A stretch of 64,000 nt of DNA from Heptranchias perlo (taxonomy: Eukaryota). The notes under the pieces were generated by a model. It was not told the origin of the DNA. It did no database searches and saw only the letters and a program-made list of their open reading frames with translations. Of this stretch, positions 12,006 to 50,878 are shown piece by piece; position 1 is the stretch's first letter; every line of letters starts with the position of its first letter. Where the stretch lies: contig NC_090325.1 of assembly GCF_035084215.1 (NCBI RefSeq), positions 151,652,001-151,716,000 of the forward strand, in the 5' to 3' direction. Made by a program: the position numbers and the translations under genes.

Positions 12006-12105
12006 TTGCAGACTACCATGTCTTCATGCAACTGTGTTATAAATAATTCTCAAACCTAGCTACATCATTGTTGCAGTATATTAAAGATCTCTCCCATACA
12101 ATTAT
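12006..12105 (-). pseudogene. Decayed death-domain exon (C-terminal half of DD)
   Basis: Acceptor tttgctctctttttcag|, donor |gtaaaa. Translation (D)NCMGEIFNILQQ*CS*V*ELFITQLHEDMVVC resembles DD helices 4-5 (EQIYQMLxxW...LxxAL), with TGA at the conserved Trp position. Confidence 0.5.
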
Positions 12106-12711
12106 CTGAAAAAGAGAGCAAACATAGTCTAAAAGCTTGGAATCAGTGCCAGGGGAACATTCATCCGAAAGAAAGATGGAATCACAATTGATGGCAATCA
12201 CAGAAATCCACAGCTTTGTGTTCAATAAACCTTTTAACATAAATTATGAAGGACTTGCAGGATTCACTCATGCGGTCAGCTGAGCTCCTCTGGGGACTGC
12301 TCATTTTAGAAAAGGAAAGGTACCGGCATTCACATTAAGTTAATCCATCTCACTTCGAAAAAAGAAAAGCAACAAAACAAAAAGAGACAGAGTTCCAGAA
12401 TATTCCATAGTAGGAAGTTTTCAAAATTGTGGCAGATAGTATTTCAATCTTCAGAAGGATTTTCTTTAATAACAAAGTCTATTGTAGCCATTAGCAGATA
12501 ATGAATTGTGGAACCAGCTGGACAACATTTAACTGGCAATTATCCAAGTGGGCTGGTTTTAAAAATTATTTTATTACCTACTGGTTGATCTCCCATGGTG
12601 TGACTAACAGTGCTTTACCGTCTCTTACAAATTTCTTCCCAAATTAATTCAATGGAGATAAGCACCCCTCTCCCCACTTTCATACCTCGGCCCTTCTTCA
12701 CCTGCAACAGT

Positions 12712-13272
12712 TTTTTTTAATATTCGTTCATGGGACATGGGCGTCGCTGGCAAGGCCAGCATTTGTTGCCCATACCTAATTGCCCTTGAGAAGGTGGTGG
12801 TGAGCCGTCTTCTTGAACCGCTGCAGTCCGTGTGGTGAAGGTTCTCCCACAGTGCTGTTAGGAAGGGAGTTCCAGGATTTTGACCCAGTGACGATGAAGG
12901 AACAGTGATATATTTCCAAGTCGGGATGGTGTGTGACTTGAAGGGGAACGTGCAGGTGGTGTTGTTCCCATGTGCCTGCTACTCTTGTCCTTCTAGATGG
13001 TAGAGGTCGTGGGTTTGGGAGGTACTGTCGAAGAAGCCTTGGCGAGTTGCTGCAGTGCATCCTGTGGATGGTACACACTGCAGCCACTGTGCGCCGGTGG
13101 TGAAGGGAGTGAATGTTTAGGGTGGTGGATGGGGTGCCAATCAAGCGGGCTGCTTTGCCCTGGATGGTGTCGAGCTTCTTGAGTGTTGTTGGAGCTGCAC
13201 TCATCCAGGCAAGTGGAGAGTATTCCATCACACTCCTGATCTGTGCCTTGTAGATGGTGCAAAGGCTTTGGG
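12712..13272 (-). mobile_element. LINE family B (CR1/L2 supergroup), 5'-truncated 3' end
   Basis: ORF 12776-13393 contains YKAQIRSVMEYSPLAW...LDTIQ.KAARLI...HRRTVAA. A-rich 3' end. Confidence 0.9.
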
Positions 13273-13274
13273 GC

Positions 13275-13510
13275 ATAAATACGGTAAGTATTACATTTTT
13301 AATTTTGTATGGAACTGTCCTAGCTATACACCCCAACGTCCAATTTTTTTTCCCTGTGACCTTGCAACACTGGTTGTGGTACTCCAACGTCATAATGTTA
13401 CGCAGGCGGCCAATCTGCTATCTCCTGTTTCTGTCACTGCCAAAAGAGAAAATTGGCCCCACCCAGACCCAAATGCATCAAGCTGCATTTGTCTACATTG
13501 AAGAAAATTT
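13275..13510 (-). mobile_element. Old CR1 LINE fragment
   Basis: Minus-strand FNVDKCSLMHLG and QC.KV..K.N.TLGCI.R.V.YK motifs. Confidence 0.7.
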
Positions 13511-14608
13511 ATCACAAGCATTTCTTTTTTTATTAGGAAAATAAAGTTATTTCTTTTTCAAGTGTTCAACGTTTTGACTATTTTCCGTGGTTTGTAAATC
13601 TGCAACAAGGGGATATAAATTTTGCATTACTACCTAAATCATAAACCATAAAATTAGAAATATTTAATAGGGAATTAAATCAACATGAAAAGAAAATATT
13701 AAAGATAATGGTGAGAGAGCAGGAAATGGAATTCAAGTAAATATCTCCTTTGTGAAGTCAGGACTGGCATGCGTATGATAGGAACCTAGTTATAGAATGA
13801 GGCCATTTGACCTATCATTCTTTCTCTTGCCAAACCTGAATACAAGTGAAAATCAAAATGCTTTATGGGCATATGACAGTATATTCTTGAGTTTCAGTCA
13901 CCACCAGTGTCAAATCTGTAACAATGTAAGAACACGTACCTTCCCACTTGCTACGGTAGCCTAGTGGCTATTGTACTGGACTAGCAACCCAGGAGGTTGA
14001 GAGCGCAAATACAGAAATGGCACAATGGGAAACTGAATTCAATAAATCTGGTAATTTGTGGGCAAGCACCGGAAAAATAAACATGAAAGCTTCCAGCCAA
14101 CATCCCAGACTCCTCTAGCACCATCTGTGGATATGTCCTTTCCTAACAGTAGGACAGAGGTACCAGAGGTGGTGGCACATTTTTGTAAATCATGCAGGAG
14201 TGACTTTGGAGCGCATGGCTTCAGGTCAAACAAGGTCAAAGAATGTTGAATGGTGTAGAAGACTGCCCTCTCATCCTATCCACAAAAAAGAGTAACTCTG
14301 ACCCATCAATTACCAATTGTTAGTCTCCTCCAAATCATCAGTAAAGTGATGAAAGGGAGTTTATCAATAGTATCACTTGACACCGACTCGCCAATAACTT
14401 ATTCACTGACACACACCGACGACATGTGCCGGCAGCCTTAATCTAGACTTGGTTGCAAGAACTGAATGCCAGAGGACAGATAAGAGAAGCTGCCCTCAAC
14501 ATCAAGATAGCATTTAACCGAATATGACACCAATCAGCCCTAGCAATATTGAACTCAAAGGGAAAGCACCTCCAGGGGCTGGAGTCATACATGACGCAAA
14601 GGAAGATA

Positions 14609-14824
14609 AATGTAAGGAATCTTACAACACCAGGTTATAGTCCAACAGTTTTATTTGAAAATCACAAGCTTTCGGAGGCTTTCTCCTTCGTCAGACTCAC
14701 CTGACGAAGGAGAAAGCCTCCGAAAGCTTGTGATTTTCAAATAAAACTGTTGGACTATAACCTGGTGTTGTAAGATTCCTTACATTTGTACACCCCAGTC
14801 CATCACCAGCATCTCCACATCATG
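14609..14824 (+). mobile_element. Minimal Penelope-like insertion: 87-bp perfect inverted repeat plus ca. 37-nt tail
   Basis: Arms 14608-14694 and 14701-14787 around the spacer ACTCAC. Tail caccccagtccatcaccagcatctccacatcatg. 13-bp TSD gcaaaggaagata (14596-14608, 14825-14837). Confidence 0.9.
14697..14733 (+). ncRNA. Minimal type I hammerhead ribozyme (Penelope-associated)
   Basis: TCAC-CTGACGA-A-GGAG(aaagc)CTCC-GAAA-GC-TT-GTGA: helix I TCAC/GTGA, conserved core, palindromic AAGCTT in place of helix III. Confidence 0.75.
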
Positions 14825-16742
14825 GCAAAGGAAGATAGTTATGGCTGTCGGTCACTGCTGTGCAGGGAAGCTTCCTGAAACCAACGATCTTCAGCTGCTT
14901 CATCAATAACCTTCCCTTTGTCATCAGATCAGGAGCGAGGCTGTTCGCTGATGATTACAGTGCCGTGATCCATTCACAATTCCTCCAATAATGAAACAAC
15001 CTATGCCAGACTACAGCAGGACTTGAATAACATTCAGGCTTGGGCTGACAAGTGGCAGATAACATTCGCACTAGGTAGGTGGCAGGTAATGACAACCATC
15101 AAACAAGAGAAAGCCCAGCTGATTCTCCTTGATTTTCAACAGCATCACCACTGCCAAGTCCCCCACCATGAATCATTGACCAGAAGCTGAACTGGACCAG
15201 CCATATCAACACTGTGACTACAAAAGCAAGTCAGAAGCTGGGTACTCTGCGATGGGTGGCTCACCTGCTGATCCTTCAAAGCCTCTCCAAAATTTACAAG
15301 GCTCAAGTTAGGAATATTCACCACTCACCCAGATGGACAACTCAAGAAACTCAACACCATCCAGGACTGAGCAGTATGCATGATCAGGGCCCCTGCTACT
15401 GGACTCAATATCCATTCCCTCCACCATCAGAACGTTGTGGCTGCAGTACGTACGATCCACAGCATTGTAGCAACTCTCCAAGGTTATTTCGACAGCACTC
15501 TCTCCCTTGCGACCCCCAGCACCAAGAAGGACAAGAGCAGCAATGTTACGAGAGCACCGTCTCCAAGCTCCGTTCCAAATCACACATCATCCTGATTAGG
15601 ATATATATCACTGTTCCTTCACCATTGCTGGGTCAGAATCCTGGAATTCCCTACCAACCACTGTGGGAACATTATGACTACGAGGACTACAACAGTTCAT
15701 GGAGAAGGGCCACCATCACCTTCGCAAGGCATCTAGGGATGGGCAATAAATGCAACCTTGCCAGCATCACCCACATCGCAAGAATAAATAGAAGTAGCAA
15801 TGTTACTGCTACAACAGCGGTGTCTCTATTTTCAGTTTCCTTCCTTCACCTAATGCTATATTAAGTACGTAGGCAAATCAGTGGTATTTCTACAAGTAAG
15901 AAAGAATTAGATCACTTGGTCTTGAGAGGTATGCACATATAATTCTAACTTAATATGAATGTGCATTTCAGATATGAAGAGCAGTCTATTTAGTGGACTA
16001 TGATAATCCAATTATGTTTTTCCTCTGCAAGTAATAAATCAGTGAAGTAATTCCTTAGTGTACAAATCTCATGAGCGCAAACACTATATATGTTAAGTAT
16101 TAGCCAAAATTACTTTGTCTCCGATATGCCTTTATTGGAGCTCTTGCTAGAGTGCATAAGTGTAAGACATAAAAAGCACAAGTACGCCTAGTGAGAAACA
16201 TTTTTTTTTCCAAAAAAACATTTTGCTAACTGTGTTGCCAAACTATTCATAGAATGTTCAGGCTGTCTAACTTGCATATTTGTAACTCCTTACCCCCATT
16301 CTTGAGATGGAAAGGTTAATTCCCATACACAATACATAAAAGTGTATAACTGTAGTAATATATTAGTACTGTAATTGAAGTATTAGTCTTTCCCCCATGC
16401 ACACATCGTTCTCACTTTTCTTTGCTGCTTGTAAGTTGTTACTAGGTAAAAACTTTTTGGCATTAGGTTCTGCTTACTAGACTGTGAACTAGAATACCTC
16501 AGGGGCTCCAATCTACTACCACAGACATCAGCAGTTGTGTTTCTCCTTCACTTTTTTCTGGCCTACTCTCTCTCATTTATAAAAGTACCCTGAAAGTATA
16601 ATTGTGTGAATGAGAACATAGTTTAAAATCAAATCAAAATCCTACACTAGAAAATTACCCAGAAGCTCGTGACAAAAGCTTGAAATTACCATTGGCATTA
16701 CCATGAACATTAATATGATATTCCTCTGCCTATTTTGTGGGA

Positions 16743-17383
16743 ATTGTAAACAATTTTACAACACCAAGACGCTGCGACAACGGATGAACGGACACCGCGC
16801 AACAATCGCCAGACAGGAGGGTTCCCTCCCAGTCGGGGAACACGTCAGCAGTCAAGGACATTCAGCCACCGACCTTCGGGTAAGCATACTCCAAGGCGGC
16901 CTTCGAGACACACGACAACGCAAAATCGTCGAGCAGAAATTGATAGCCAAGTTCCGCACCCATGAGGACGGCATCAATCGGGATCTTGGGTTCATGTCAC
17001 GCTACATGTAACCCCACCAGCGAACATATGTTATCTGTTTTTAATATAATGGGTCATTTGCTGTCTTTTCTATGTCTCTGCCTCTCTCTGTTTTTTTTTG
17101 GTGGTTTGTATATTCGGTGGCCTTTTAGGTAACACCTCTCTGTCTGCACACTGTGATTGCCGTGGCAACGGGCAGTTGGAAAGACTATCTGTAATCACCA
17201 GGCATTGTTCTGTGATTTATAAATGAGAAGGGTTCGAGGATTTCATTTCCACAACATTCACCTGAGGAAGGAGGAAGCCTCCGAAAGCTTGTGAATTTCA
17301 AATAAAATTGTTGGACTATAACTTGGTGTTGTAAAATTGTTTACAATTGTCAACCCCAGTCCATCACCGGCATCTCCACATCA
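16743..17383 (+). mobile_element. 5'-truncated Penelope-like retroelement (GIY-YIG endonuclease C-terminus and pLTR)
   Basis: TLRQRMNGHR...PVGEH...RKIVEQKLIAKFRTHEDGINRD. Short 5' inverted terminus of about 26 bp. 12-bp TSD tattttgtggga (16731-16742, 17384-17395). Confidence 0.92.
17256..17296 (+). ncRNA. Minimal type I hammerhead ribozyme
   Basis: ATTCAC-CTGAGGA-A-GGAGG(aag)CCTCC-GAAA-GC-TT-GTGAAT; 6-bp helix I and 5-bp helix II. Confidence 0.8.
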
Positions 17384-18394
17384 TATTTTGTGGGAGTCAT
17401 TAAACCATTTGATATAAACAGGTTGAGGTCTACATTAAAATAGCAAACAGAAGAATGTCATCTGAGCATCTTAAATTGTCATCTGCTTATATGACCACGA
17501 GCAATTTCTAGGTTCGCATATCTAATCTTTAGGTTGAGAAATGTCATGGTTTCTTCAGATGTCTGAAAAGCAGCTTTTGATTCAAAAGTCCTATTAAGGA
17601 GGGGAAGAGAGAATGTGCAGAAGTCTCAAATCTTTTAGGGATATAGAAGACATTCTTTAAAGCAAGATTTTCTAAACAATATACAGTCTTATGACAAATA
17701 CGATCAGTCATGAGCAGCAGAGAGGTTCCGTAACTGCAGTTGTCACATTCCATTTTTCAGTTCATCAAAACTGAAACTTGTAGAATGTACATTTTCACAT
17801 CTCGATAACAGGTGATGGAGTAAGGATTTTTTTTTAAGCAGTATCATTCAAAGTGAAATTTTAAATGTTCTTAATAGCTGAACCTAATTTGTTTTCCATA
17901 GGCAAGGGGACACAGATCTTAGATTTACTTCTTAACTGAGGAATGATTCTCAAATTAACCTGCTACAGGATAAAATTAATTTATTTGCTCATATGTTTGT
18001 GAAATCATTTTTGATTCCTCTAACTTTAGTCAAAATGTATCATATTTAGTGGCAGCCTGCTATTAAACAATAAAACAGTCCAGAATCCAACAAAGGAGCA
18101 AATGGGGGGCAACACCAGTGCTAGAAACATAAGCAATCTTCAAAGAGGGAAAGACAGGGGCAAAGGCAAAATTAAGAATGATAAGTATAAATGGAATAAG
18201 AGTAAACTGACAATAAATGAGAGAAAATAGAGAAGATGACAGAGAAAGGGAACGAGATAGGCAGAAGAGAGGGGAAGAAAATAGAAAAGTGGAGGGGGAT
18301 GAGAAATAGGGAATGAGGGAGAGAAATTCACACATGTATAGGATATGTGCAAGTGAGCATGAGTGCGACTGATAGAGAGAAATTGTGAAAGAAA

Positions 18395-21405: not shown

Positions 21406-21442
21406 AGAGTGGCAGCCTATATGTGTTGTACGAGAGAAAGAG

Positions 21443-22318: not shown

Positions 22319-22483
22319 TGTCAAACAACCCATAATTAAGTTTAAGGAAGACTAATTTCAGTTGAAGGAAATATGCTAATACTACATTGTACTCTATTAT
22401 TGCAGTCCCCATGTTGCAGAGCCTACAAGCCTGCAAAGGCTCCATACAGTAACTGTCATTTGTAAAGAAAATAACAAACCATT
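22319..22483 (-). pseudogene. Exon at the ZU5/UPA boundary (open frame)
   Basis: Donor gaca|gtaaga. Acceptor ccatccag| (alternative ttcttcag| at 22503). Translation (E)WFVIFFTNDSYCMEPLQACRLCNMGTAIIEYNVVLAYFLQLK resembles PIDD SWYWLWYTTKNC and ankyrin RFWL...ATQLY...PYMAKFVVF. Confidence 0.5.
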
Positions 22484-23604: not shown

Positions 23605-23817
23605 AGAATCAGCTCCGTTGTAATATTTTAAAAATTGTACTTATCCTTTCTGGTTCAAAAAATTAAGGGTTGAGCAGATCAGAATACAGAAATTTGGCCG
23701 GGTAAAGTGCTCAGGTTTCCCATTTTAAAAAAGCATCGGAGTGACGTGTGTCATACAATTAATTATAAAATCATACACTATTTCCGTGCCCACTTGATCA
23801 GCCGGAATCGAAAGCAC
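23605..23817 (-). pseudogene. Decayed ZU5 exon (213 nt, phase 0-0) with two in-frame TAA
   Basis: Strong acceptor ttcttctgcag| and donor |gtgagt. VLSIPADQV...THVTPMLF*NGKPEHFTRP...G*VQFLKYYNG matches ZU5 SP(L/I)...F.(K/Q)P...LRLL. In phase with the exon at 27716-27879. Confidence 0.6.
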
Positions 23818-27430: not shown

Positions 27431-27715
27431 GTATTTTAATATAACATATATATTGTACATGATTCAGAGCAAAACTAATATTGTGCTACATTCTGTTTCA
27501 TATGTTGATGGACAAAGAAAAGACAAAATTAAAGCTAAAGCAGCCCACTGTGTCACATAATAGTCGCCTGCATCCCTCATCCCACCATGAGTATAGACAA
27601 TGGCTAAAAGGCCAATTTTGACATTTAAAAAAAAATCAATCATTCCAGTATCAGTTGTTTAGAGTGAAAATAAATTCCAGAAAAAAAGTTTCTCAATCTC
27701 ATTCTCAATACTAAC

Positions 27716-27879
27716 CTGTACGCTACACCTTAGGTTCCCGATTTGTGATTGGAACCCAGGAGGAAAGTGCAAAGTCAGTGATGGGTACGTAGAATGTTGA
27801 ATTCCTGAAACCAACCCCCATTTTGTAAAGTTGGGCACTTTCATAATGGATGGTGCTAAAAATACCATCACATAGGAAC
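27716..27879 (-). pseudogene. ZU5 (second ZU5, N-terminal part) exon, open frame, phase 1 to 0
   Basis: Acceptor tttttctgttttag|, donor CAG|gttag. (G)SYVMVFLAPSIMKVPNFTKWGLVSGIQHSTYPSLTLHFPPGFQSQIGNLRCSVQ aligns by eye with ankyrin YFAVV...P.VQASFPEGA....VGLQAQ and PIDD/DTHD1 (F/Y)PPG. Confidence 0.6.
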
Positions 27880-27944
27880 CTAAAACAGAAAAACCATTTG
27901 TTCCTAAAGCCCCTCTTTCCATCAGTGAATGTACCATCAACACC

Positions 27945-28165
27945 ATCAGGATTCTTCAAGTTAAGCTTTTATATAGTACTTAGCGAGGCTCCGGGGCCAC
28001 AAGCTCCCAACACAAGTTTCACAGCTGCCAGCAACCCCAGAGTAAATTCACTGGATTCATAAGAATGGCTAATCAAAAGTAATGTTTTTTACTTGGTCTT
28101 CCTGGTGGCTAGTCTTAGCAAATCCAGTAAGTTTACTCTCGATTTGTCACTGACTGCACAATCCC
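27945..28165 (-). pseudogene. Candidate decayed first-ZU5 exon
   Basis: Partial ZU5-like motifs in different frames (GLCSQ*QI...NITFD*PF; TLLLISH...LGLL; CWELV). Boundaries uncertain. Confidence 0.3.
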
Positions 28166-28424
28166 TACTAAATGTAATATAAAAGTGCCTACAATCGCCT
28201 GACAGAATTGAAAGAATACAAGGAAATCTTTCAAGATGATAATATGCGAAGTTCATTATGCTTCCTGATTCAAGTGTACAAATGTTACCACCTACCATAT
28301 TGGTGAGTGCTGCCAAAGCAACCACAGCATTCCTTCACCTCTGAGCCCTGTTTCAAGTCCAGCTCAGACTGATGAAATAAGTTTCCTCTCTCTTTTGAAT
28401 CCAAAGTGAAACAAGTGTTTCAGT

Positions 28425-29985: not shown

Positions 29986-30420
29986 ATCTAGTTATTAACA
30001 AACATGTCTCTACAGCCAAAACTGTCCAAACATTGACTCATCCAGAGATCACAAGAATAGATGGCATGAGCAAATGAAAATTGACTCCAGTACAATAGGG
30101 AATGTCCTTCAGCGATTAGGTTCAAGGTAAGTTACTGGGGATGAACAGGGCGAGCTTCACATCAAACTGTGTTATATCTGATCTCAACGTTATCAACACT
30201 GGTGAATACCTCAATTCAAACAATTAAAAACTGTTGTGATTTTCCAGACCGTAACATTTAAAAATTTCTCATGTGAATCATGAGCATTAAAACGAGAGTT
30301 AGAAAATCACAACCTGGGTGAATTGCAAGTGTTGGCAATACTGTGACCTAAGGGTGCTTGATGCTGGCGCTATATACCAAAAATGGGAAAATTTAATCCC
30401 ACATCACTAACTTGGCTCAC

Positions 30421-30555: not shown

Positions 30556-30824
30556 ATTGTAAAAGGTAGGTCAATTTAGGCCATTCTCATGCCGTTTCTC
30601 CTAACGACTAGTTTGAGAACAGCAGAGACTTAAAAGGATCTGCACATTCTCTCATCCAGGGAATAATGCTTGGCATGAGTGGAAAACTAGGTAGGAAGTC
30701 TCCATTGAGCTGCTCTTATACATCTGCCAACAACACTACGGGCCTGAAAAAAGGCTGCCCACCTCTCAATTACAAAAATTGTGTGGCTTGAGAAGGAAAA
30801 CACTTTCAATATCCCGCATGTAGA

Positions 30825-31889: not shown

Positions 31890-32001
31890 TTTAAATTGGT
31901 AGCTTATTGGTGGTAAAATTGCAATATTAGGAATTCCACTATAGTACTAATGCCAATTAACCAATGTCATTCCTTTAAATTTTAGCAGTACAGTGGTGTA
32001 T
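31890..32001 (-). pseudogene. Candidate decayed ankyrin-repeat exon
   Basis: Acceptor gttttctcag|AT ACA CCA CTG gives (D)TPLYC* and later GISTIVEFLI in the same frame. Confidence 0.3.
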
Positions 32002-35700: not shown

Positions 35701-35964
35701 AGAGTAACTGCCCTTGACATCAAGGCAGCTTTTGATCAAGTGTGACACCAAGGAGCCCTAGTAAAACTGAAGTCAATGGGGATAAGGGAGAAAACTCTCC
35801 AGTGGCTGGAATCATACCCAGCACAAAGGAATATGGTTGTGGTTGTGGAAAGCCAATCATCACAGCCACAGGACATCACAGCAAGAGTTCCTCAGGGCAG
35901 CTTCCTAGGCCCAACTAACTTCAGCTGTTTCATCAATGACCTACCCTCCATTATAAAGTCAGAA

Positions 35965-36064
35965 TGTGGAGATGCCGGTGATGGACTGGGGTTGACAATT
36001 GTAAACAATTTTACAACAAATAAATTTGTTGGACTATAACTTGGTGTTGTAAAATTGTTTACAA
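35965..36064 (-). mobile_element. 100-bp Penelope terminus with short inverted end
   Basis: Reverse complement of the tail (gatgccggtgatggactggggttgac) plus the attgtaaacaattttacaaca / tgttgtaaaattgtttacaat IR. TSD ttataaagtcagaa (35951-35964, 36065-36078). Confidence 0.85.
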
Positions 36065-37483
36065 TTATAAAGTCAGAAGTGAGGATGTTCGCTGATGAAA
36101 GCACAGTGCTCAGTTCCATTCACGATTTCTCAAAATGAAATAATCCATGCCCGCGTGCAGCAAGACCTGGACAACATCCAGGCTAGGGCTGATAAATGCA
36201 GCTCCAACAACACTCAAGAAGCTCAACATCATCCGGGACAAAGCAGCACGCTTGATTGGCACCCCATCCACCACCCTAAACATTCACTCCCTTCACCACC
36301 GGTACACCGTGGCTGCAGTGTGTACCATCCACAGGATGCACTGCAGCACCTCCCAAACCCGCGACCTCTACCACCGAGAAGGACAAAGACAACAGACACA
36401 TGGGGACAACACCACCTGCACGTTCCCCTCCAAGTCACATACCTACAAAAAGAGAGTATGAAAAGAAAATTGCAAGGGATATCAAAACCAATACGAAGAA
36501 CTTTTATAGTTATATTAGGAAAAAGAGGGTGGTCAGGAGCAGTGCTGGCCACTCAAAAACTGAAAGTGGGGATATTGTCATTGACAATGGGGAAATGGTG
36601 GACATGTTGAACAATTACTTTGCGTCAGTATTTACAGAAGAAAAAGAGGATAGCATGCCGGAAATCCCAAGAAAACTAATATTGAATCGGGGACAGGGAC
36701 TCGATAAAATTAATATAAGTAAAGCAACAGTAATGAAGAAAATAATCGCACTAAAGAGTGACAAATCCCCAGGACCAGATGGTTTCCATCCCAGGGTTTT
36801 AAAGGAAGTAGGTGAGCACATTGCAGATGCCCTAACTATAATCTTCCAAAGTTCTCGATATTCAGGAACTGTCCCTCGAGATTGGAAAATTGCACATATC
36901 ACTCCGCTTTTTAAGGAGAGAGAGGGAAACCGGGGAATTATAGGCCAGTTAGCCTAACATCTGTTGTGGGGAAATTGCCGGAGTCTATAATTAAGGATAG
37001 GGTGACTGAACACCTCGAGAATTTTCAGTTAATCAGAGAGAGCCAGCATGGATTTGTGAAAGGTAGGTCGTGCCTGACAAACCTGATTGAATTTTTTAAA
37101 GAGGTGACTGAAGTAGTGGACAGGGGAATGTCAATGGATGTTATTTATATGGACTTCCAGAAAGCATTTGATAAGGTCCCACATAAGAGACTGTTAGCTA
37201 AGATAGAAGCCCATGGAATCGAGGGAAAAGTACGGACTTGGTTAGGATGTTGGCTGAGCGAAAGGCGACAGAGAGTAGGGATAATGGGAAGGTACTCACA
37301 TTGGCAGGATGTGACTAGTGGAGTCCCGCAGGGATCTGTCTTGGGGCCTCAATTATTCACAATATTTATTAACGACTTAGATGAAGGCATAGAAAGTCTC
37401 ATTTCTAAGTTTGCCGATGACACAAAGATTGGTGTAAACAATTTTACAACACCAAGTTATAGTCCAACAAATTTATTTTAAAT

Positions 37484-37522
37484 TCCACAAGCTTTCGGAG
37501 GCTTCCTCCTTCGTCAGGTGAA
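37484..37522 (-). ncRNA. Minimal type I hammerhead ribozyme (inverted arm)
   Basis: Exact reverse complement of 38154-38192. Confidence 0.75.
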
Positions 37523-38153
37523 CGGTGTGGAAATGAAATTTTCGAATCCTTCGCATTTGAAAATCACAGAACAATGCCTGGTGATTACTGCCCGTTGCCA
37601 AGGCAATCACAGTGAGCAGACAGAAAGGTGTCACCTAAAAGGCCACCGAATATACAAACCCCCAAAAAAGAGAGAGAGAAGGAAGACAGTCAATGACCCG
37701 TTATATTAAAAACAGACAACATTTGTTCACTGGTCGGTGGCTGAATGTTCCCCGGGGAACACTTCAGCAGTCATGGACATTCAGCCACCGACCTTCGGAT
37801 AAGCATACTCCAAGGCGGCCTTCGAGACACAAGACAACGCAAAATCGTCGAGCAGAAATTGATAGCCAAGTTCCGCACCCATGAGGACGGCCTCAACCAG
37901 GATCTTGGGTTCATGTCACACTACACGTAACCCCACCAGCGAACAAATGTTATCTGTTTTTAATATAACGGGTCATTGACTGTCTTCCTTCTCTCTCTCT
38001 CTTCTTTTTTGGGGGGGTTTGTATATTCGGTGGCCTTTTAGGTGACACCTTTCTGTCTGCTCACTGTGATTGCCTTGGCAACGGACAGTAATCACCAGGC
38101 ATTGTTCTGTGATTTTCAAATGCGAAGGATTCGAAAATTTCATTTCCACACCG

Positions 38154-38192
38154 TTCACCTGACGAAGGAGGAAGCCTCCGAAAGCTTGTGGA
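38154..38192 (+). ncRNA. Minimal type I hammerhead ribozyme
   Basis: TTCAC-CTGACGA-A-GGAGG(aag)CCTCC-GAAA-GC-TT-GTGGA. Confidence 0.75.
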
Positions 38193-39934
38193 ATTTAAAA
38201 TAAATTTGTTGGACTATAACTTGGTGTTGTAAAATTGTTTACAATTGTCAACCCCAGTCCATCACCGGCATCTCCACAACAAAGATTGGTGGCAATGTAA
38301 GCAGTGTAGATGAAAACATAAAATTACAAAGCGATATTGATAGATTAGGTGAATGGGCAAAACTGTGACAAATGGAATTCATGTAGACAAATGTAAGGTC
38401 ATCCACTTTGGATCAAAAAAGGATAGAACAGGGTACTTTCTAAATGGTAAAAAGTTAAAAACAGTGGATGTCCAAAGGGACTTAGGGGTCCAGGTACATA
38501 GATCATTGAAGTGTCATGAACAGGTGCAGAAAATAATCAAGAAGGCTAATGGAATGCTGGCCTTTATATCTAGAGGACTAGAGTACAAGGGGGCAGAAGT
38601 TATGCTGCAGCTATACAAAACCCTGGTTAGACCACACCTGGAGTACTGTGAGCAGTTCTGGGCACCGCACCTTCGGAAGGATATATTGGCCTTGGAGTGG
38701 GTGCAGCGTAGGTTTACTAGAATGATACCCGGACTTCAAGGGTTAAGATACGAGGAGAGATTACACAAATTGGGGTTGTATTCTCTAGACTTTCGAAGGT
38801 TAGGGGGTGATCTGATCGAAGTTTATAAGATATTAAGGGGGGTGGATAGAGAGAAACTATTTCCGCTGGTTGGGGATTCTAGGAGTAGGGGGCACAGTCT
38901 AAAAATTAGAGCCAGACCTTTCAGGAGCGAGATTACAAAACATTTCTACACACAAAGGGTGGTAGAAGTTTGGAACTCTCTTCAGCAAACGGCAATTGAT
39001 ACTAGCTCAATTGCTAAATTTAAATCTGAGATAGATAGCTTTTTGGCAACCAAAGGTATTAAGGGATATGGACCAAAGGCAGGTATATGGAGTTAGATCA
39101 CAGATCAGCCATCAAAATGGCGGAGCTGGCACGAGGGGCTGAATGGCTACTCCTGTTCCTATGTTACCATCCCGACTTGGAAATATATCGCCGTTCCTTC
39201 ATCGTCGCTGGCTCAAAATCCTGGAATTCTCTTCCTCACAGCACTGTGGGAGAACCTTCAGCACATGGACTGCAGCGGTTCAAGAAGGCAGCTCACCACC
39301 ACCTTCTCGAGGGCAATTAGGGATGGGAAATAAATGCTGGCCTCACCATCGACACCCACATCCCATGAACGAATATAAAAAAGTGCCAAGCAACATTCAC
39401 ACCACAGAAGTGCCAGGCAATGACCATCTCCAATAAGAGAGAGTCTAACCACCTCCTCTTGACATTCAATAGCATTACCATTACCAAATCCCCCACAATC
39501 AACATCCTGAGCACCACATTGACCAGAAACTCAACTGGACCAGCCACATAAATGCCATGGCTACAAGAGCAGGTCAGATGCCAAGCATTCTGCAGCGAGT
39601 GGCTCAATGCCTGACCCTCCAAAGCCCACTACCACAAGGCACAAGTGAAGAGAGTGATGGAATGCTCTCCATTTGCCTGGATGGGTGCAGCAGCAACACC
39701 ACTCAAGAAGCTTGACACCTTCCAGGACAAAGCAGTCTGCTTGATTGGCAGCCCATCCACCACCTTAAACAACCACTCCCTCCACCACCAGCACACCAAG
39801 GTTGCATTGTCTATTATCTACAGGATGCACCACAGCAACTTGGCAACACTCCTTCGACAGCACCTCGCAAACCCGTGACCTCTACCACCTAGAAGGGCAA
39901 GGGCAGCAGGCGCACGGGAACACCATCGCTTCTA

Positions 39935-42570
39935 AATCAAAAGCAAAATACTGCGGATGCTGAAAATCTGAAATAAAAACAGAAAATGCTGGAGAAACTC
40001 AGCAAGTCAGGTAGCATCTGTGGAGAAAGAAACAGTTAATAGACCCGATATTAGAGGAGGGCGGCGGGTTCGCAGCGGGGGGGGTCGACTGGGCACGTGG
40101 GTAACGCGCCCAGTGAAATCGGGTGCCGCACGCAATCGCAGGCTAATTGGAGCCACTTTCCTGTGCTTCCAAGTTTTGCGCTGGAAAGCTGCGCAGCGGG
40201 CGGACTGCGCATTTGCAGCAAAGGCTGTCAGCTGGAGGAGCCCTATTTAAAGGGGCGGTCCTCCACTGGCTGATGCGGCAGGAAATAGGAAAAATTACAG
40301 CATGGAGCAGCCCAGGGGGAAGGCTGCTCCCAGGTTTAATGATGCCTCACTCCAGGTATTATTTGATGGGGTGAGGAGGAGGAGGAGGACAGAGATCTTC
40401 TCCCCGGCAGGCGGGAGGAAGCGGCCTGCCTCTGCCACCAAGAAGGCCTGGCTCGAGGTGGCAGAGGACGTCACCTGCACCACCAACATATCGCACATCT
40501 GCATACAGTGCAGGAGGCACTTCAATCACCTAAGTAGGTCAGCCGAAGTGAGTACACTTACTCATTCTCCTACACTCCGTCTGCCACATCACCGCCCCCA
40601 CCCCATATCTCCTTCTGCACTGCCAACACTACTCTATCACATCACTCCTCACACCCACTCAAAAGTCATCCTCATCTTACCTGCACTTACTCACCTCGCC
40701 AGTACTCATCCCAATCCTCATACAATCTCATGCTCACCCTCTCATGCATCTCTTTCACGGTCAGCCTCATTCAACCTGCCACGACCTGTGCTGCAGCCAC
40801 AGGGCATGCATCACATATGTGTACTAGGAAGCGTAAGGCAAACATGTCGTGAGCATGAAGGGGATGCACAAGGGTGTTTGAGGGTTTGTCATGGTTTTTA
40901 CCTATTTTTAATTTCTGATCAACTCACATAACATATTATATTGTCACCACTACTGCCAAATCTTATCCGGTTTGTGCAATAATGCCCTCTCCTGAGGATC
41001 ACTATGAGGACCCACAACTGATGCCACCCATTGTGTCACTGCAGAGTGGTTGTAGGTGTATTTGCAGGGCTCTTTTGTGCAGAGGACTGAGAGATGTCGG
41101 CGATGTCCCCGGTGGCACCCTGGGAGGATGCGGAGAAGTCGTTGAGGGCAGTGGTGACTTTGACAGCAACAGGTAAGAAGGTGGTGCTCGGGCCAGCCGG
41201 GAGCAGCTCGGCGCGAAGGAGGCTGCAGATGTCCACGACTACATGTCAAGTGACTCTGAGCCTCCGTGTGCACTGCTGCTCAGAGGTGTCCAGGCAGCTG
41301 AGCCTCGGTCTGTAGGCCCTGTGGCGAGGGTAGTGCCTTCGGCTACGCATCTCTCTCTGCTGTTGCCCTCCGTCCTGCTGTGCAGGTGGATGTGTCACAG
41401 CACTGTGTCATGGGACTCCACGTGTCAGAGGTGGACGGCGTGGCTAGTGATGCTGTTCGTCCTCCGAGGAGGTCATGACTGCAGCTACGGCGGCCCCCAT
41501 CCGGAAGATGTACATTTGAGGGGGTCCACAAGGTAGGTAAGTGTGTCTGGACACCGGGGTAAGTGTGCAAGTTGGTGAATTTTATGGTTGTGAGGAGGGT
41601 GGTGGAGGCCAAACTTTGTCCAAAGTGACAGAGTGGCCTCCTGCAATGAGTGAGGGTCTCCACACCACCCCCCCCCCACACCTGTCAAATGGACCTTTGC
41701 AGCTGCCACAGGCTGATGGCTGCAACACGTCCATTTCAACTTGGAGTGTTTCCCCCAGTACGGGAAACGGTCCCAGTTGTTTGGAAAATCCCACCCCTCC
41801 TAAAACATCATGTTAATCAGATCTCTAAATGACCTGAAGTACCGAAATGATTACCTTAAGCGGCACCCCGCCGGCTTTAATTGCTGGCGGAAGTTCCACA
41901 TGCGGGGGCTACACGCGCTTGTCAGCGAGTCACTGGCGAACCCAGAAGTGGGTGGGTTGGAGCCGGGCTCCAGACCCGCCCCGGGAATCCCTGATTTTCA
42001 CAGCCCCCTCGCCACGAACGCACCTGCTCAGGGGTGCGAAAATCGAGCCCATTGTTTCAGGTCAAAGACTTTGTCAGAACTGGAAGATGTTGAAAGAATT
42101 AAAGTACAGAGTCAGGGAAAGGCTTCGGGGGGGGAGGGGAAAGAGAGGGGAGGAAAGAGCAAAAGGGAGACTCTGTGATAGGGTAGAGGGCAAGAGAGAT
42201 TAAATGACAAAAGGGATGATGGTGCAAGGCAAGGAAGGTGGTATTAGGACAGGTTAAGAAACAAAAGGTTAGTCAGGAGTAGCTGTAAATGGCAGCAGCA
42301 GAACCATTACCAGCACTTGCTGTCCAAAAAAAATGGGAGCAGTGGTTATGATCTGAAGTTATTGAAATCAATGTTGACTCCGGAAGGTTGTAAAGTGCCT
42401 AAACAAAAGATGAGATGCTGTTCCTCGAGCTTACGTTGAGCTTCAGTGGAACAGAGGTCAGAGTGGGAGCGGGACAGGGAAATTAAAATTAATTAATAAA
42501 ATTGATTCCCGTCCCACTTCTGACCATTTTAATTCCCTGTCCCACTCCCACTCTGACCATTTTAATTCCC
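39935..42570 (-). mobile_element. Second-family Penelope-like remnant (pLTR and GIY-YIG C-terminus), split by a Harbinger derivative
   Basis: Minus strand 42340-42490 reads AQRKLEEQHLIFCLGTLQPSGVNIDFNNFRS*. pLTR at 39935-40040 and 42051-42085 with a degenerate CTGA...GACCT-GAAAC hammerhead. Small inversion at 42505-42570. Confidence 0.7.
40041..42050. mobile_element. Non-autonomous Harbinger derivative (2.0 kb), same orientation as 4376-8626
   Basis: TIRs agacccgatatt / aaaatcgagccc; TSD aat/att. Open Myb exon 1 (40302-40547). Transposase N-terminal half only. Confidence 0.9.
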
Positions 42571-42879: not shown

Positions 42880-43330
42880 TTTAATTCATTAAATTATCTG
42901 TATCAGTAAATGGAATGCACTGAATTCTGTAAATAATGTCTGTTTGAGTGAATGAAATCCAATCAATTATATTCTCCATGCCTGAATGAGTGTTATTAAA
43001 TAATACTCCAAATTCAATCCAATGAATTCATTAAATTTTGTGTGAATAGAATGTACCAAATTCTTTAAATAATGTCTGTCTGAATGAATCAAATTTGATC
43101 ATGTTTCTCATTAATTTGAGTTGAATAAATTCATTAAATCATACCTAGCTAAGTGAATGGGATGGACTGAGTTTAAGTGATTTTTGCTGAGCGAATCAAA
43201 TCCAACAAATTGTTAAATAATCCATTCCTCAGTTAATTAAATCCAACAAATTCATTACATAATGTGTCGCTCAGTGAACACAATCCAGCAAATTTATTGC
43301 ATAATCTGTGGCTCTGTGAAATCCAGTGAG
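42880..43330. repeat. Degenerate minisatellite, unit ca. 40-42 bp, roughly 10-11 copies
   Basis: Recurrent aattcattaaataat....ctgagtgaat.aaatccaac. Confidence 0.65.
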
Positions 43331-44375: not shown

Positions 44376-45021
44376 CAATTAAGAGTTAGTATACCCAAAA
44401 CCCCAAATGGCCACGGTAATATAAACAAGTAGTCTGGTGGAGAAGGGAGGGTATCTATATAATTATAATGGATTGTGTATTTCATTCATATTTCCTGTCA
44501 CTACATAATACCATGGATTTTTATCCTAATAGAAAGTAGGAAATTGTCTCTATTTTATCTAAATATTAACTGGGGAATTATTTGGCAATATGGACATGTG
44601 TATTTTTATATTATGTGAAAAGCTATTGCACAATTTAAAATCAAAAAGTTCCAAGTGGCACAGCATTCTATAACACAGCCCATTCTGGAACCTGGGTGTG
44701 AATCTTTTATTCCAAAATGGTGGCATGAAAGACCCCTCTTGCTGTTAGCTGTAAATGTCAAGTTAAATTGGCTTGTCCAGTCTCAAATCAGTTCCATGTA
44801 AATATCAACCTAAAGCGCAAAACTGCTCTTAATTCAGCACTAAACAGTCTCATTCAGAGTCCACAAGGATTGTTCCAGTGGAATACGAAAATGTCACATT
44901 GATGCAGTAGGTGGTGCTCTTCTAAAACTGTGGTTAAGGCACACTGCTGGATCAAAATAAAGGGACCTTTTGCCCTCTAAGCCAAGCTATACAAAATCTG
45001 GGAGTACTTGAAGTTGGCACT

Positions 45022-45082
45022 GTCATTTCTGCACCTTTCTCCAACAAAATAAAATGACCTTTTGCAAATGCCCCAAATAGTC
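45022..45082 (-). pseudogene. Candidate decayed ankyrin-repeat exon
   Basis: After acceptor ttatgtag|: YLGHLQKV then, with a 1-nt frameshift, LLEKGAEMT. Confidence 0.35.
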
Positions 45083-45679: not shown

Positions 45680-47335
45680 ATAACAGAGTCCACAGCACAG
45701 AAACAAGCCAAACGGCCCAACTGGTCTACGCCGGCGTTTATGCTCCACACGAGCCTCCTCCCTTCCTACTTAATCTAACCCTATCAGCATACCCTTCTAT
45801 TCCTTTCTCCCTTGTGTGCTTATCTAGCTTCTGCTTAAATGTATCTATGCTGTTTGCCTCAATTACTCCTTGCAGTAGCGTGTTGAACATTCTTACCACT
45901 CTTTGGGTAAAGAAGTTTCTCCCGAATTCCCTATTGGATTTATTAGTGACTATCCTATATTTATGTCCTCTAGTTTTGGACTCCCCACAAATGGAAACAT
46001 TTTCTCTACATCTACCCTATCAAACCCTCTCATTATCTTAAAGACCTCCATCAGGTCACCCCTCAGCCTTCTCTTTTCTAGAGAAAAGAGCCCAAGCCTG
46101 TTCAGCCTTTCCTGATAAGTATATCCTCTCAGTCCTTGTGAATCTTTTTTGCTCCTTTTCAATGTCTCTATATCCTTTTTATAATATGGAGACCACAACT
46201 GGTCACAGTACCCCAAGTGTGGTCTAACCAAGGTTCTATACAAGTTTAACATAATTTCTCTGCTTTTCAATTCTATCCCTTTAGAAATGAACCCCAGTGC
46301 TGGGTTTGCCTTTTTTATGGCCTTATTAACCTGTGTCGCTACTTTTAGTGATTTGCACATCTGTACCCCGAGATCCCTTTGCTCTTCTACCCCATTTAGA
46401 CTTATTATCCAAGCAGTACGTGGCCTCCTTATTCTTGCTACCAAAATGCACCATATCACACTAATCTATGTTGAAATTCATTTGCCAATTACACATCCAT
46501 TCTGCAAGTTTATTAATGTCTTCGTGTATTTTGACGTATTCTTCCTTCATATTAACTACACCCCAAATTTGGTGTCGTTCTCAAATTTTGAAATTGTACT
46601 TCCGATTCCCCAATCCAAATTGTTAATGTAAATTGTGAACAACAGTGGTCCCAGCAGTGATCCCTGTGGAACATCACTTCCAACCTTTTGCCAGTCTGAC
46701 TAGCTACCTTAACCCCTACTCTGTTTTCTGTTTTGGAGGCAGCTTGCTGTCCATCCTGCTACCCATCCCCTGACTCCACAAGCTCTGACCTTAGTCATGA
46801 GACTACTCATCAAAGGCCTTTTGAAAATCCAAATACACTACATCTACTGCATTATCCTTATCTACTCTTTCTGTTACTTCTTCAAAGAATTAAACAAGGT
46901 TGGTCAAGTATGACATTCCCTTCTGAAATCCGTGCTGACTACTCTATGATATTTTTGTTTTCTAAATGTTTTTGAATGAAGGTTCCATTATCTTTCCTAC
47001 CACTGACGTCCATCCCACAGCCTACATCCTTAACCTCACAGATAGCAAGTACATTATACCAGTTGGATAGGACCAGTGTCTGCAGGACCTCCTTTTCGAC
47101 CTCCCCTTGGTTCCCCTGACCCTGCTGACTAAGTCACACTCTCCCCTTCCTGTACCTGTGCTTTCCTCTGAGGTACGACTGTACTCTGGAGAAAACTATC
47201 TAAAAATCCTCCCCCTCCTTTATGTGTCGGAGTGTCTCTAATTCTCTAATTTCAAGGCAGAAACATTTCCTGCAGATGTGGCAATCCAGGACAGTCTCAC
47301 TGTCCACAAACTCCCACATATCACAGTCCCAACAC
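45680..47335 (-). mobile_element. CR1 LINE (3' RT part plus deleted upstream/ORF1 pieces)
   Basis: ORF 45950-46459 with RDLGV, LVRPHL, RLRGDL; CR1 3' tail at 45680-45790. Confidence 0.85.
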
Positions 47336-47338
47336 ATA

Positions 47339-49378
47339 GGCCTCCATTTTAGCACCCGCTATCGGGTGCGTTCCTGGCGGGGGGCTCCGAAAATCGGGGA
47401 ATCCCGGAGCGGGTCGGGAGCCCGGCTCCAACCCGCCCACTTCCGTGTTCCCCAAAGAGCCACCGACGTGCACGCGCAGCCCCCGCATGTGGGACTCCCG
47501 CAGGCAATTAAAGCCGGCGGGGTCCCACTTGAGACTATTTACCGAGGTATTTCAGGTCATTAACAAACCTGATTAAGGGAATATGTCAGGAGGGGTGGGA
47601 TTTTAGAAACAACTGGGACTGTTTCCCATACTGGGGGAAACAGTCCCAGTTGAAATGGACGTGTTGCAGCTATCAGCCTGTGGCAGCTGCAAAGGACCAT
47701 TTGACAGGTGGGGGGGAGACCCTCATTCATTGCAGGAGGCCACTCTGTCACTTGGAACAAAGTTTGGCCTCCACCACCCTCCTCCTGACAATCAAATTCA
47801 CCAACTTGCACACTTACCCCGGGGTCCAGAGACATATACCTACCTTGCGGACCCCCTCAGATGTACATCTTCCGGATGGGGGCCGCCGTAGCTGCAGTCA
47901 TGACCTCCTCGGAGGGCAAACAGCATCACCAGCCTCGCCGGCCGTGGAGCTCCACAACACAGTGCTGTGACACATCCACCTGCACAGCAGGAGGGAGGGC
48001 AACCGCAGAGAGAGATGCGTCGCAGGGGGCACGACCCTCGCCACAGGGTCCACAGACCGAGGCTCAGCTTCCTGGACCTCTCTGAGCAGCAGTGCACACA
48101 GAGGCTCAGAGTCACTCGACATGTAGTTGTGGACATCTGCAGCCTCCTTCATGCCGAACTGCTCCCGGCTGGCGCGAGCACCATCTTCTTACCTGTCACT
48201 GTCAACGTCACCACTGCCCTCAACAACTTCTCCTCCGCATCCTTCCAGCGTGCCACCGGGGACATCGCTGACGTCTCTCAGTCGTCTGCTCAAAAGAGCC
48301 CTGCAAATACACCTACACCCACTTTGCAGTGACACAATGGGTGGCATCACGTGTGGGTCTTCATTGTGATCCTCAGGGAAGGGCATTATTGCACAAACCA
48401 GACAAGATTCACAAAGACGTGGCAGTAGTGGTGACAATATAATATGTTATGTGAGTTGATCAGAAATTAAATATAAGTAAAAACCATGACAAACCCTCAA
48501 ACACCCTTGTGCATCCCCTTCATGCTTACGACACGTTTGCCTTACGCTTCCTACTGCACATATGTGATGCATGCGCTGTGGCTGCAGCACAGGTAGTGGC
48601 AGGTTGAATGAGGCTGACCGTGAAAGAGATGCATGAGAGGGTGAGTATGAGATAAAGCCATGAGATTGTATGAGGATTGGGTTGAGTGGTAGCGGCGGGA
48701 TGAGTACTGGCGAGGTGAGTAAGTGCAGGTAAGATGAGGATGAGGTTTGAGTGGGTGTGAGGGGTGATGTGACAGAGTAGTGTTGGCAGTGCAGAAGGAG
48801 ATGTGGGGTGGGGGCGGTGATGTGGCAGACGGAGTGTAGGGAATGAGTAAGTGGCTGACCTACTTAGGGCATTGCAGCGCCTCCTGCATTGTATGCAGGT
48901 GGGCAATATGTTGGTGGTGCAGGTGACCTCCTCTGCCACCTCGAGCCAGGCCTTCTTGGTGGCAGAGGCAGGCCGCTTCCTCCTGCCCGCCGGGGGTGGG
49001 GGGGGGGGGGGGGGGGGAGATCTCTATCCTCCCCCTCCTCCTCACTCCATCTAATGATACCTGGAGTGAGGCATCATTAAACTGGGAGCAGCCTTCCCCC
49101 TGGGCTGCTCCATGCTCTAATTTTTCCTATTTGTTGCAGCATCTGTCAGTGGAGGACTGCCCCTTCAAATAGAGCTCCTCCAGCTGACAGACCTTACTGC
49201 GCATGCGGAGTCCGCCCGACGCGCAGATCAGCAGCGGGGAACCCAGAAGACCAGGTAAGTGGATCCAATTAGGCTGCGATCGCGCACGGGGCAGACTGAT
49301 TTCACTGGGCGCGTTACCCACGCGCCCAATAGCCCCCCCCCCCCGCCGCGAACCCGCAGCCCTGGTAACATCGAGCCC
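47339..49378. mobile_element. Non-autonomous Harbinger derivative (2.04 kb), inverted relative to 40041-42050
   Basis: TIRs ggcctccatttt / aacatcgagccc; TSD ATA (47336-47338, 49379-49381). Same internal deletions as 40041-42050. Confidence 0.92.
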
Positions 49379-49534
49379 ATAGCCTGCAGTGCCAATTCCA
49401 GTTTTTTAAAAATTTATTTATTTATTTAGTAGTAAATTTAATTCTAGATGTAGTCAATTACTTAAGATCTAGATTATATTTAGTAGATGGGTTTAGTTTG
49501 ATTTCAGATTAATTTGTAACTAATTTGCCATAAC

Positions 49535-49655
49535 CTACAAGGCTACAGACCAAGAGCTGTAAAGTGGGATTAGGCTGGATCGCTCTTCTTCAGCCAGCAC
49601 AGACATGATGGGCCGAATGACCTCCTTCTGTGCCGTAAATTTCTATGATTCTAAT
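49535..49655 (+). mobile_element. CR1 3' tail
   Basis: gggccgaatgacctccttctgtgccgtaaatttctatgattcta. Confidence 0.8.
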
Positions 49656-50099
49656 TAGTCTTATTTTTTGTTTATTAAAGTATCCCCTTAACACCTATTT
49701 ATGTAAACCAGATTTTTAATTAATGCAATTCGAATCCCTTTAATGTTGGTATCCTCTATTTAGTTAATTTAAATTTTATCCCCTTAGATCTAATTAATTA
49801 CTGATTATTTATTGGTTTAAACCCTTTGGTTTAAATTACTTAACATCTCCTTCCAACTCTCACCAAATGGCCCATTATTGTGAGCTGTTTAACTGTAGCT
49901 GATTGTTCAAATGAATTTTCCTTCTTCCTGAGTTGTCTCACCTCTAGACTATTTCTGTCTGTTGATGCTATATTTCACACATATAAATAGGAATTTTATT
50001 TCTATTGTAGAGAATATAAAAACTGAAGATTGTCCTTTTTGAGAATAGGAGCAGCATTCTTGTGCGATGGTTTGCAGCAAACCCAGAAATGGAAATAGT

Positions 50100-50878
50100 A
50101 AAGTGTAACTACAGATTTTACACCACATTCACGTAAAGAATAACGAGCCAAATGGCCACATGGCATGAAAAATAAAAGAGTCACTTTCAAATGGCCACAA
50201 TTTTGTAACTGAACCCAGTATTGCAGTCTTGACTATGCTAGCAAGGTTTCATTCATGTAGAGGAGAACAATCTTCTACACTTTGCTACCTCTTGACATAC
50301 AGCTGGTCTTACAAATAACCTTGCAATTTTCAAACAAGAGCATCACACATTGTGAAATCACAGCAGCAATGAAGGAGGCAATTAGGAAAGCCACAGGATG
50401 TATTGGCTTGATTTGTATCATACCTGTATTGTCTACTATACTGCATCTGTTAGTCACCCTTCGACAGGAACCCATTGTAAACAAGCTTTCATGCTTAACC
50501 GGGATATCCTGCATAAACATACATTTCCTACAGCTGTGTTTCATATGCAATTCTTAACAAAAGGACACTGAACGTCAATTAAAATCTAGTCTGTACCCAT
50601 GACTTGCTCAGAAAATTTCTCTTAACCCTTTCTTCAAGCATCCAATTTCAAATAGAAATAAAGGGCACATCTGTAATTTACAGCAGAAAAGTAAAACCAT
50701 TTGGTAATAAACCTTGTACAAACAAGCAGAGGACACATCAAGCTAACAATCTTATGCTATTTTACAGCACTGCTGATGAAAGCAGTTCCACTTCAGCAAC
50801 AATGCCGTAACATCAGTCAGACGGCACCACATCCAAGAAGCAGCACTATAGTCTCCAACCACAACGGGTGGTTTCTCC
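50100..50878 (-). pseudogene. Cluster of decayed ankyrin-repeat exons (50766-50878, 50424-50508, ca. 50100-50275)
   Basis: LETIVLLLGCGA...SGTAF after acceptor tgttgcag|. ACLQW/FLSKG/SIVDNTG|gtatga. DCSPLHE* and CGHLKV...LRECGV. Stops and frameshifts throughout. Confidence 0.45.

Follow-up and report, generated by a model that had tools for sequence, protein, structure and literature searches.

The minus strand of a 64-kb stretch of the Heptranchias perlo genome (assembly GCF_035084215.1, contig NC_090325.1, positions 151,652,001 to 151,716,000; "the window" in what follows) can tentatively be read as holding the remains of a spliced, non-canonical gene for an ankyrin-repeat / ZU5-ZU5-UPA / death-domain protein, as a model working from the DNA letters had proposed (the original prediction). 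That some ZU5/UPA-type relic of any kind is present we regard as probable. The similarity is borderline and the result is a lead, not a discovery; the likelihoods given to the different readings are judgements, uncalculated. The core evidence consists of ZU5-B and the end of UPA; only position and weak motifs link the ankyrin repeats and the death domain to it.

If the candidate exons are real, the locus is dead today: stops, frameshifts and an insertion inside an exon are all present. Because the exon-like pieces carry stops and one of them contains a repeat, no protein of this kind is possible now. The original prediction saw a possible unitary pseudogene here, and of that reading it is the disablement that the sequence shows, given the exons. 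The gene would have died long ago, its introns since having filled with retrotransposons and DNA transposons.

Candidate exons

All tests used the unique DNA of the window, about 28.5 kb in 17 islands; 39% of the window's length is repeated within it (self-BLAST), and 43% of its bases are G or C. The previously named segments sit in islands that have no second copy in the window by self-BLAST, and an origin from known repeats is ruled out only as far as this self-comparison shows. The candidates follow in the proposed direction of transcription, with the inserted repeat next to the exon that it splits.

50750..50878, minus strand: first ankyrin-like exon, weak; acceptor in the top 0.9%
45006..45082, minus strand: best ankyrin-repeat-like segment of the window; gapped internally when set against the 33-residue repeat
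31900..32001, minus strand: third predicted ankyrin-like segment, unsupported; one short motif
30310..30420, minus strand: predicted ZU5-A exon 1, unsupported; acceptor in the top 1.2%
28093..28198, minus strand: predicted ZU5-A exon 2, unsupported; acceptor 28164 or the stronger 28198
27815..27928, minus strand: open frame like the middle of ankyrin ZU5-A, starting 49 nt upstream of acceptor 27879
27716..27879, minus strand: exon A, first half of ZU5-B in the predicted register; FPPG at 27766; 54 stop-free codons
23431..23817, minus strand: exon B, covering the second half of ZU5-B and reaching the ZU5/UPA boundary; stops and frameshifts
22319..22483, minus strand: exon C, from the ZU5/UPA junction into the first part of UPA; its 54 open codons are in phase with 23431
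16702..17590, minus strand: exon U, end of UPA, split by an insertion; acceptor 9th of 1814
16743..17383, no strand assigned: inserted repeat in exon U; target-site duplication at 17395-17384 and 16742-16731
13720..13835, minus strand: extra candidate for the first half of the death domain, unsupported by profile; acceptor in the top 1.9%
12006..12105, minus strand: predicted death-domain exon (second half; exon D); 2 stops in 33 codons

Splice junctions and reading frames

Splice sites were scored with a rough splice matrix over 1814 minus-strand AG sites and 1713 GT sites. All ten acceptors of the original prediction proved to be AG sites in non-repeated minus-strand DNA; eight stand exactly where they had been placed and two are one base off, the exon starts really being 30420 and 28164. 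The acceptors at 23817, 17590, 12105, 50878 and 30420 fall in the top 0.2-1.2% of the AG sites, with 23817 ranking 3rd, 17590 9th and 12105 10th, and that of exon A (27879) falls in the top 3%. The donors at 27715 (exon A), 22318, 16701, 23604 and 12005 lie in the top 1.3, 6, 6.5, 10 and 12% of the GT sites, respectively.

The in-phase splice from 27716 to 23817 that had been proposed is borne out as a phase-0 join with the frame open across the junction; equally open frames occur in 5% of 1754 strong donor/acceptor joins. The end proposed for the downstream exon, 23605 (donor 23604), is weak, and no frame is open for 15 codons on both sides of its join to 22483. Donor 23430 (top 1.9%) gives a phase-1 join to 22483 with an open frame, equalled by 9-14% of the 1754 joins, and 23431 is a likelier end than 23605 for the exon that starts at 23817; donor 23604 was rejected as the preferred end of exon B (z 1.1 versus 3.2, with no open join). 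Over all proposed frames there are 14 stops in 416 codons against a background of 6.0%, the frames having been partly picked for openness. Within exon B, the 20 nucleotides at 23604-23585 begin with a donor-like GT and end with a pyrimidine-rich AG; too short for an intron, they are possibly a collapsed one.

The segment from 17590 to 16702 does form one exon-like unit, as predicted, interrupted by a repeat of 641 bp with a perfect 12-bp target-site duplication. The repeat shares 89% identity with a copy at 37753-38281 in an alignment of 551 bp, and the insertion is therefore fairly young. Behind its top-0.5% acceptor, exon U holds two UPA-type motifs in one frame (17529 and 17448). It is out of phase with exon C, which implies either a frameshift or a missing middle UPA exon; no such exon was identified in the window. 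One of the chain tests and the joined-exon test described below took exon U without the 6 in-frame bases of the duplicated site, which leaves the frames unchanged.

Similarity to ankyrin profiles

The cassette profile was built from 12 named ankyrins (5 sauropsid ANK1, 6 nematode and 1 mosquito) found from an Escherichia coli YahD bait, and the ankyrin-repeat profile from 59 repeats of 17 named proteins. Profile tests were frameshift-aware, and the domain ranks come from the first parameter set.

Three window-wide signals are borderline: the segment at 45082 (equalled by 1 of 28 shuffles), 27928-27815 (4 of 58) and 23817-23431 (12 of 100). All lie on the minus strand in the expected order. Fisher's method applied by hand to the three window-wide values gives about 0.03, to which the shared strand and order add a factor of roughly 1 in 24; since the best among several variants went in, both figures are on the optimistic side.

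Exon B is the best of 91 splice-defined candidate exons on both strands (z 3.78), none of its own 100 shuffles reaches it, and the 12 in 100 given above is its value against shuffled profiles after correction for the best of 91. Over its full length it aligns with the second half of ZU5-B, and it was picked unprompted in a chained alignment at profile columns 209-333. The frame at 27928-27815 is the top unspliced match of the whole ZU5-ZU5-UPA-death-domain profile on either strand (26.4 bits), with 7 of 12 identities to a mosquito ankyrin at a pairwise E of 0.016. The 45082 segment ranks first of 431 peaks on either strand with the ankyrin-repeat profile. Its two-repeat local score of 21.0 is the one matched by 1 of 28 DNA shuffles; its one-repeat score of 13.9 bits is matched by 16 of the 28, and its acceptor and donor are weak.

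Among the pre-assigned segments from ZU5-A to the death domain, the ranks are 42/401 (30310-30420, against the matching ankyrin segment), 242/500 (28093-28198, against the ankyrin-derived profile), 10/299 (exon A), 8/302, 91/301, 138/255 (exon C), 15/256 (exon U as a whole segment), 127/298 (13720-13835) and 346/450 (12105-12006, against ankyrin death domains). Exon U also ranks first at column 420, one of 36 sliding ankyrin windows. The best profile positions of exons B, C and U (columns 333, 362 and 450) lie within their predicted domains. Individual support from profiles is absent for the predicted ankyrin-repeat N-terminus, the ZU5-A exons and the death domain; the death-domain candidate at 13720-13835, new to this analysis, has no good donor.

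Single motifs in order

Twelve short patterns were counted in six frames of the unique DNA and in 100 shuffles. Six family motifs occur once each, all on the minus strand, where 0.05-0.29 would be expected per motif; they run from ankyrin (45059, 32002) through ZU5 (27766, 23742) to UPA (17529, 17448). Such single, ordered, minus-strand motifs favour a gene relic, and are no more than suggestive, because the patterns were tuned after the window had been seen. One of the 12 patterns does not occur, and loose ZU5, ankyrin, leucine-rich and death-domain patterns are at or near chance. The death-domain helix-spacing motif has a chance expectation of 1.3; the leucine-rich repeat motif has no strict occurrence (0.8 expected) and one if stops are read as leucine (1.5 expected).

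Evidence against a gene, and the case for chance

Several results weigh against a gene of this kind. Whole-gene alignments, spliced or chained, do not rise above noise: three were equalled by 6 of 74, 21 of 51 and 36 of 66 shuffles and a fourth, depending on threshold, by 17, 20 or 4 of 55. The decayed minus-strand ZU5/UPA gene of the original prediction is thus borderline in the three window-wide tests and fails the four chain tests. A first spliced alignment had been discarded as dominated by base-composition bias. Exons A and B taken together as one ZU5 domain are not significant against ankyrin, mixed or bacterial profiles; their join is equalled by 27-120 of 300 shuffles and by 118-284 of about 1400-1500 random joins (27/300 and 118/1413 in the best case). 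Joined exons score z 2.1-2.4 in the wrong order against 0.9-2.4 in the right one, and the best profile positions of exons A and D are wrong (columns 122 and 348). The register of 27928-27815 is that of the middle of ZU5-A, in conflict with the ZU5-B register originally proposed for the overlapping exon A. The acceptors at 22483, 28164, 32001 and 45082 are ordinary (rank 10-37%), repeat spacing is broken in all three named ankyrin segments, and matches found by eye arise in mutually exclusive frames, which is a warning.

Library searches point the same way. Pfam gave no Ank, ZU5, UPA or Death match for 30 wide and 49 tight translations, 5 PDB queries returned nothing relevant, a word-indexed protein search gave 4 candidates of which none scored, and the ESM Atlas, with low recognition, gave nothing usable. 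A search of exon A against a library of 1.84 billion proteins found two matches, a nonsense repeat open reading frame (ORF) and a Calx-beta protein, both rejected as repeat-summing artefacts. Matches to UPA (PF17809, UPA_2), the death domain (PF00531) and the ankyrin repeat (PF00023/PF12796) are lacking in Pfam, also for 50750-50878, where the ankyrin-repeat profile has only sub-top positions (50811-50823 and 50600). Significant profile matches, on which the original prediction was to stand or fall, are thus absent for single exons in Pfam and PDB; the concatenated peptide was scored only against the profiles built here. A tBLASTn search of plasmids gave no match, and neither did Rfam for the window.

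A profile of bacterial ZU5 domains came from a motif scan of GTDB that gave 120 loci; 116 had an open frame of sufficient length and went into the alignment, 111 of them being ZU5 by Pfam. It detects ANK1/2/3, ZO-1 and UNC5B in PDB as a positive control. It gives no score on the window or on the join of exons A and B (top 4.7% of joins), and it is a weak probe, too remote, reaching only 4.5-9 bits on ANK1 ZU5-B. A protein search with it returned bacterial proteins only, and a mixed alignment of bacterial ZU5 with two of the exons was misaligned and dropped. UNC5 receptors (ZU5-UPA-death domain) and bacterial ZU5 (PF00791) share the ZU5 fold family with the proposed gene. Among bacteria, ZU5 domains are frequent in Planctomycetota, Myxococcota and Elusimicrobiota; many of the best 120 matches are PKD/Ig-repeat proteins of 1,300-1,700 residues, and only 13 have a ZU5 label in a precomputed Pfam column.

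The strongest competing account, less likely than a gene relic and still to be taken seriously, is chance resemblance: ordinary AT-rich intronic or intergenic DNA between the repeats, in which good-looking AG and GT sites and short motifs were picked by eye. In its favour, all library searches and the four chain tests are negative, and no single test is convincingly below 0.05 after window-wide correction. Strong acceptors are plentiful on both strands (63 minus, 48 plus). The same bases fit different domains according to frame: at 31959, within the third ankyrin-like segment, a second frame gives a leucine-rich repeat once stops are taken as leucine, and one frame of 78 residues is both ZU5-like and ankyrin-repeat-like. 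Chance must nevertheless place three independent best matches on previously named segments, on one strand and in order, and the two UPA motifs of exon U in one frame behind their strong acceptor; the negatives, moreover, have low power for a remote, decayed relative.

Several further segments came up in the same scans. A minus-strand segment at 24175-24065, new to this analysis and AT-rich, is the top match of two ankyrin windows at the ZU5-A/ZU5-B boundary (tBLASTn E 0.40) and covers the profile region of exon A, with which it competes. Minus-strand candidates at 655/572/562-278 and 33348-33098 are the second-best splice-defined ones (z 1.8-2.3), out of order or unassigned. The third ankyrin-like segment (31900-32001) ranks 12th in 1 of 8 ankyrin-repeat profile scans and beyond the top 14 in the others. 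Site 30421 scores as a strong donor too (6.9), an acceptor lying at 30743, so that the predicted start of the first ZU5-A exon may instead be an exon end; one frame has a His-Phe-Trp-Tyr run at 30385-30374. No minus-strand acceptor in unique DNA is stronger than 51631, and upstream of it are a donor at 51699 and a weaker acceptor at 51912; this region (51912-51560) has no Pfam match and could hold 5' exons of the same or another transcript.

Power of detection and distance from known families

Simulations indicate what the negatives can exclude. A simulated relative of 20-30% identity with 15-25% decay has a median rank of about 20-190 and comes first in no more than 20% of trials; raising the identity to 45% brings this to 12-72%. 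Remote death domains rank 95-191 of 450. Canonical ZU5-B or UPA exons at 20-30% decay come first in 80-100% of trials and fall to the observed score level only at 40-50% decay. The observed ranks fit a relative of 20-45% identity decayed by 15-25%, and in our preferred reading of a spliced gene relic the library searches would be empty because a remote, decayed relative is below detection. The negatives rule out a moderately decayed copy of ANK1/2/3, and are compatible with a remote family or with noise alike.

Canonical ankyrins, as described in PMC5135030, retain at least 42% identity even to Trichoplax, have a cassette found by tBLASTn and carry 24 ankyrin repeats. With 12 ankyrin ZU5-ZU5-UPA-death-domain regions as queries, tBLASTn against the window gave a best E of 0.40 and nothing at the named exons. 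The proposed locus shares with ANK1, ANK2 and ANK3 its domain order and borderline ZU5/UPA profile matches at 27928-27815, 23817-23431 and 17590-17485; it differs in having no cassette detectable by tBLASTn and at most about 3 repeats against 24, and in being disabled. Of the repeats only 45082 stands out, marginally, and others could have been deleted or overwritten by transposons. The claim that the sequence is too divergent for ANK1/2/3 is supported for moderate decay: tBLASTn misses every named exon, and an exon at a simulated 20-30% decay would mostly rank first. A recently decayed copy of ANK1/2/3 is excluded by the simulated decay ranks.

Other possible origins

A smaller likelihood, which we rate as low, falls to a PIDD1 or DTHD1 duplicate that has died, or to a sister family sharing such a ZU5-ZU5-UPA-death-domain core, in which the upstream ankyrin-like pieces would be chance and the N-terminus leucine-rich or absent. 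DTHD1 has this core and is not known to carry ankyrin repeats. Judged by eye, exons A (its FPPG), C (the junction exon) and D (the death-domain exon) presumably come closer to PIDD1 or DTHD1, a lead only. The ankyrin-like segments do have weak splice sites or wrong spacing, and the leucine-rich reading at 31959 would suit such an N-terminus, with the 1.5 chance matches noted above. For DTHD1 a death domain and ciliary detection, and not the ZU5/UPA core, are described (PMC12310455), and PIDD1 joins leucine-rich repeats to ZU5-ZU5-UPA and a death domain and cleaves itself at His-Phe-Ser (PMC9162469). The order of the C-terminal modules is shared with PIDD1; here, by contrast, the motif search finds no strict leucine-rich repeat in unique DNA. 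In the proposed frames neither ZU5 boundary shows an intact His-Phe-Ser, which decay could have erased, and self-cleavage is accordingly not indicated. The signals that can be measured, finally, are to ankyrin profiles.

Still less probable is that a canonical ankyrin paralogue lies here in a state of very deep decay. Two genome duplications early in vertebrate history gave the three ankyrin paralogues of today (PMC5135030), and the absent fourth could be such a copy. The observed scores equal those of a canonical exon at 40-50% decay, and canonical ankyrin also fits in a second register, in which for 6 of 36 windows the tops at columns 53, 68, 135, 150, 360 and 420 (at 27836, 27809, 24134, 24095, 23279 and 17485) lie on the minus strand in order; a formal chain test on the same windows is, however, not significant. 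At 40-50% decay the probability that seven exons keep an intact AG is at most 0.0008. In about 20 kb no more than 3 of 24 repeats are suggested, and a long ORF of the giant-exon type is lacking between UPA and the death domain, all ORFs of the window being shorter than 250 residues.

That the gene is alive, with its true exons mis-picked and the stops lying in introns or in the wrong frame, is very improbable: exons A and C are open and the minus-strand skew described below is what the inside of a transcribed unit should show, yet exon U has stops and an insertion, exon B needs frameshifts, and relatives would be expected in the library of 1.84 billion proteins, in which exon A found none.

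Transcription and repeats across the window

The minus strand has a mild skew, with T exceeding A in 12 of the 17 unique islands and G exceeding C in 12 of 17, which suggests that the region is or was transcribed in this direction. The skew extends past the ends of the proposed gene, as if the whole window lay within a minus-strand transcription unit. No gene neighbouring the proposed one was recognised in the window.

The repeats resemble those of cartilaginous fishes. Reverse-transcriptase domains are present, by Pfam, in 3 of 14 repeat ORFs tested. The repeat inserted into exon U belongs to a short-element family found at 37433-38281, 35964-36066, 14605-14823 and 16743-17383, whose members have inverted copies of a 27-bp end inside them; that at 37433-38281 also contains an inverted duplication, 96% identical. 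The element inserted into exon U may be Penelope-like; its ORF has no Pfam match. A GC-rich 2-kb element forms an inverted pair at 40058-42050 and 47339-49363 (85% identical), with an older third copy and related pieces at 4382-8606; its ORFs, of 142-237 residues, have no Pfam match, and it may be Harbinger-like. A tandem repeat with a 42-bp unit and 2.9 copies lies at 43199-43320 in a degenerate AT-rich repetitive stretch.

A possible lost family and what it would mean

Beyond the local reading, the gene may have belonged to an undescribed vertebrate family, an ankyrin-repeat-gated ZU5-ZU5-UPA-death-domain adaptor apart from ANK1-3, PIDD1 and DTHD1 that died early here and may be intact in other cartilaginous or jawless fish; we hold this to be doubtful, clearly more so than the gene relic itself. 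Such a protein could be pictured as an "ankyrin-sensor PIDDosome" or, less likely, as a lost fourth ankyrin ohnologue. In the literature searched, mostly open-access, no gene or pseudogene of this kind is reported from sharks.

The ancestral protein would have been a switch, in which UPA and the death domain fold back on ZU5 and the death domain is held inactive. Binding of a partner by the N-terminal repeats would then release the death domain, which would nucleate a death-domain signalling complex. A ZU5-UPA-death-domain switch of this type is described for UNC5 and ANK2 and proposed for PIDD1 in PMC9162469.

With borderline evidence for a dead gene of an already known architecture, the present value of the locus is that of a cheap, sharply testable lead. 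If the reading is true, a lost branch would be added to the small set of vertebrate ZU5-UPA-death-domain proteins, and the module would be one that has been swapped between sensor heads, ankyrin repeats in one case and leucine-rich repeats in the other. The epaulette shark mutation rate is given as 7e-10 per base per generation (PMC10587355), and we propose that a relic of an undescribed family would be legible here only thanks to slow mutation in the lineage. Genes lost very long ago would then remain legible as fossils in slowly mutating genomes, unnoticed by annotation.

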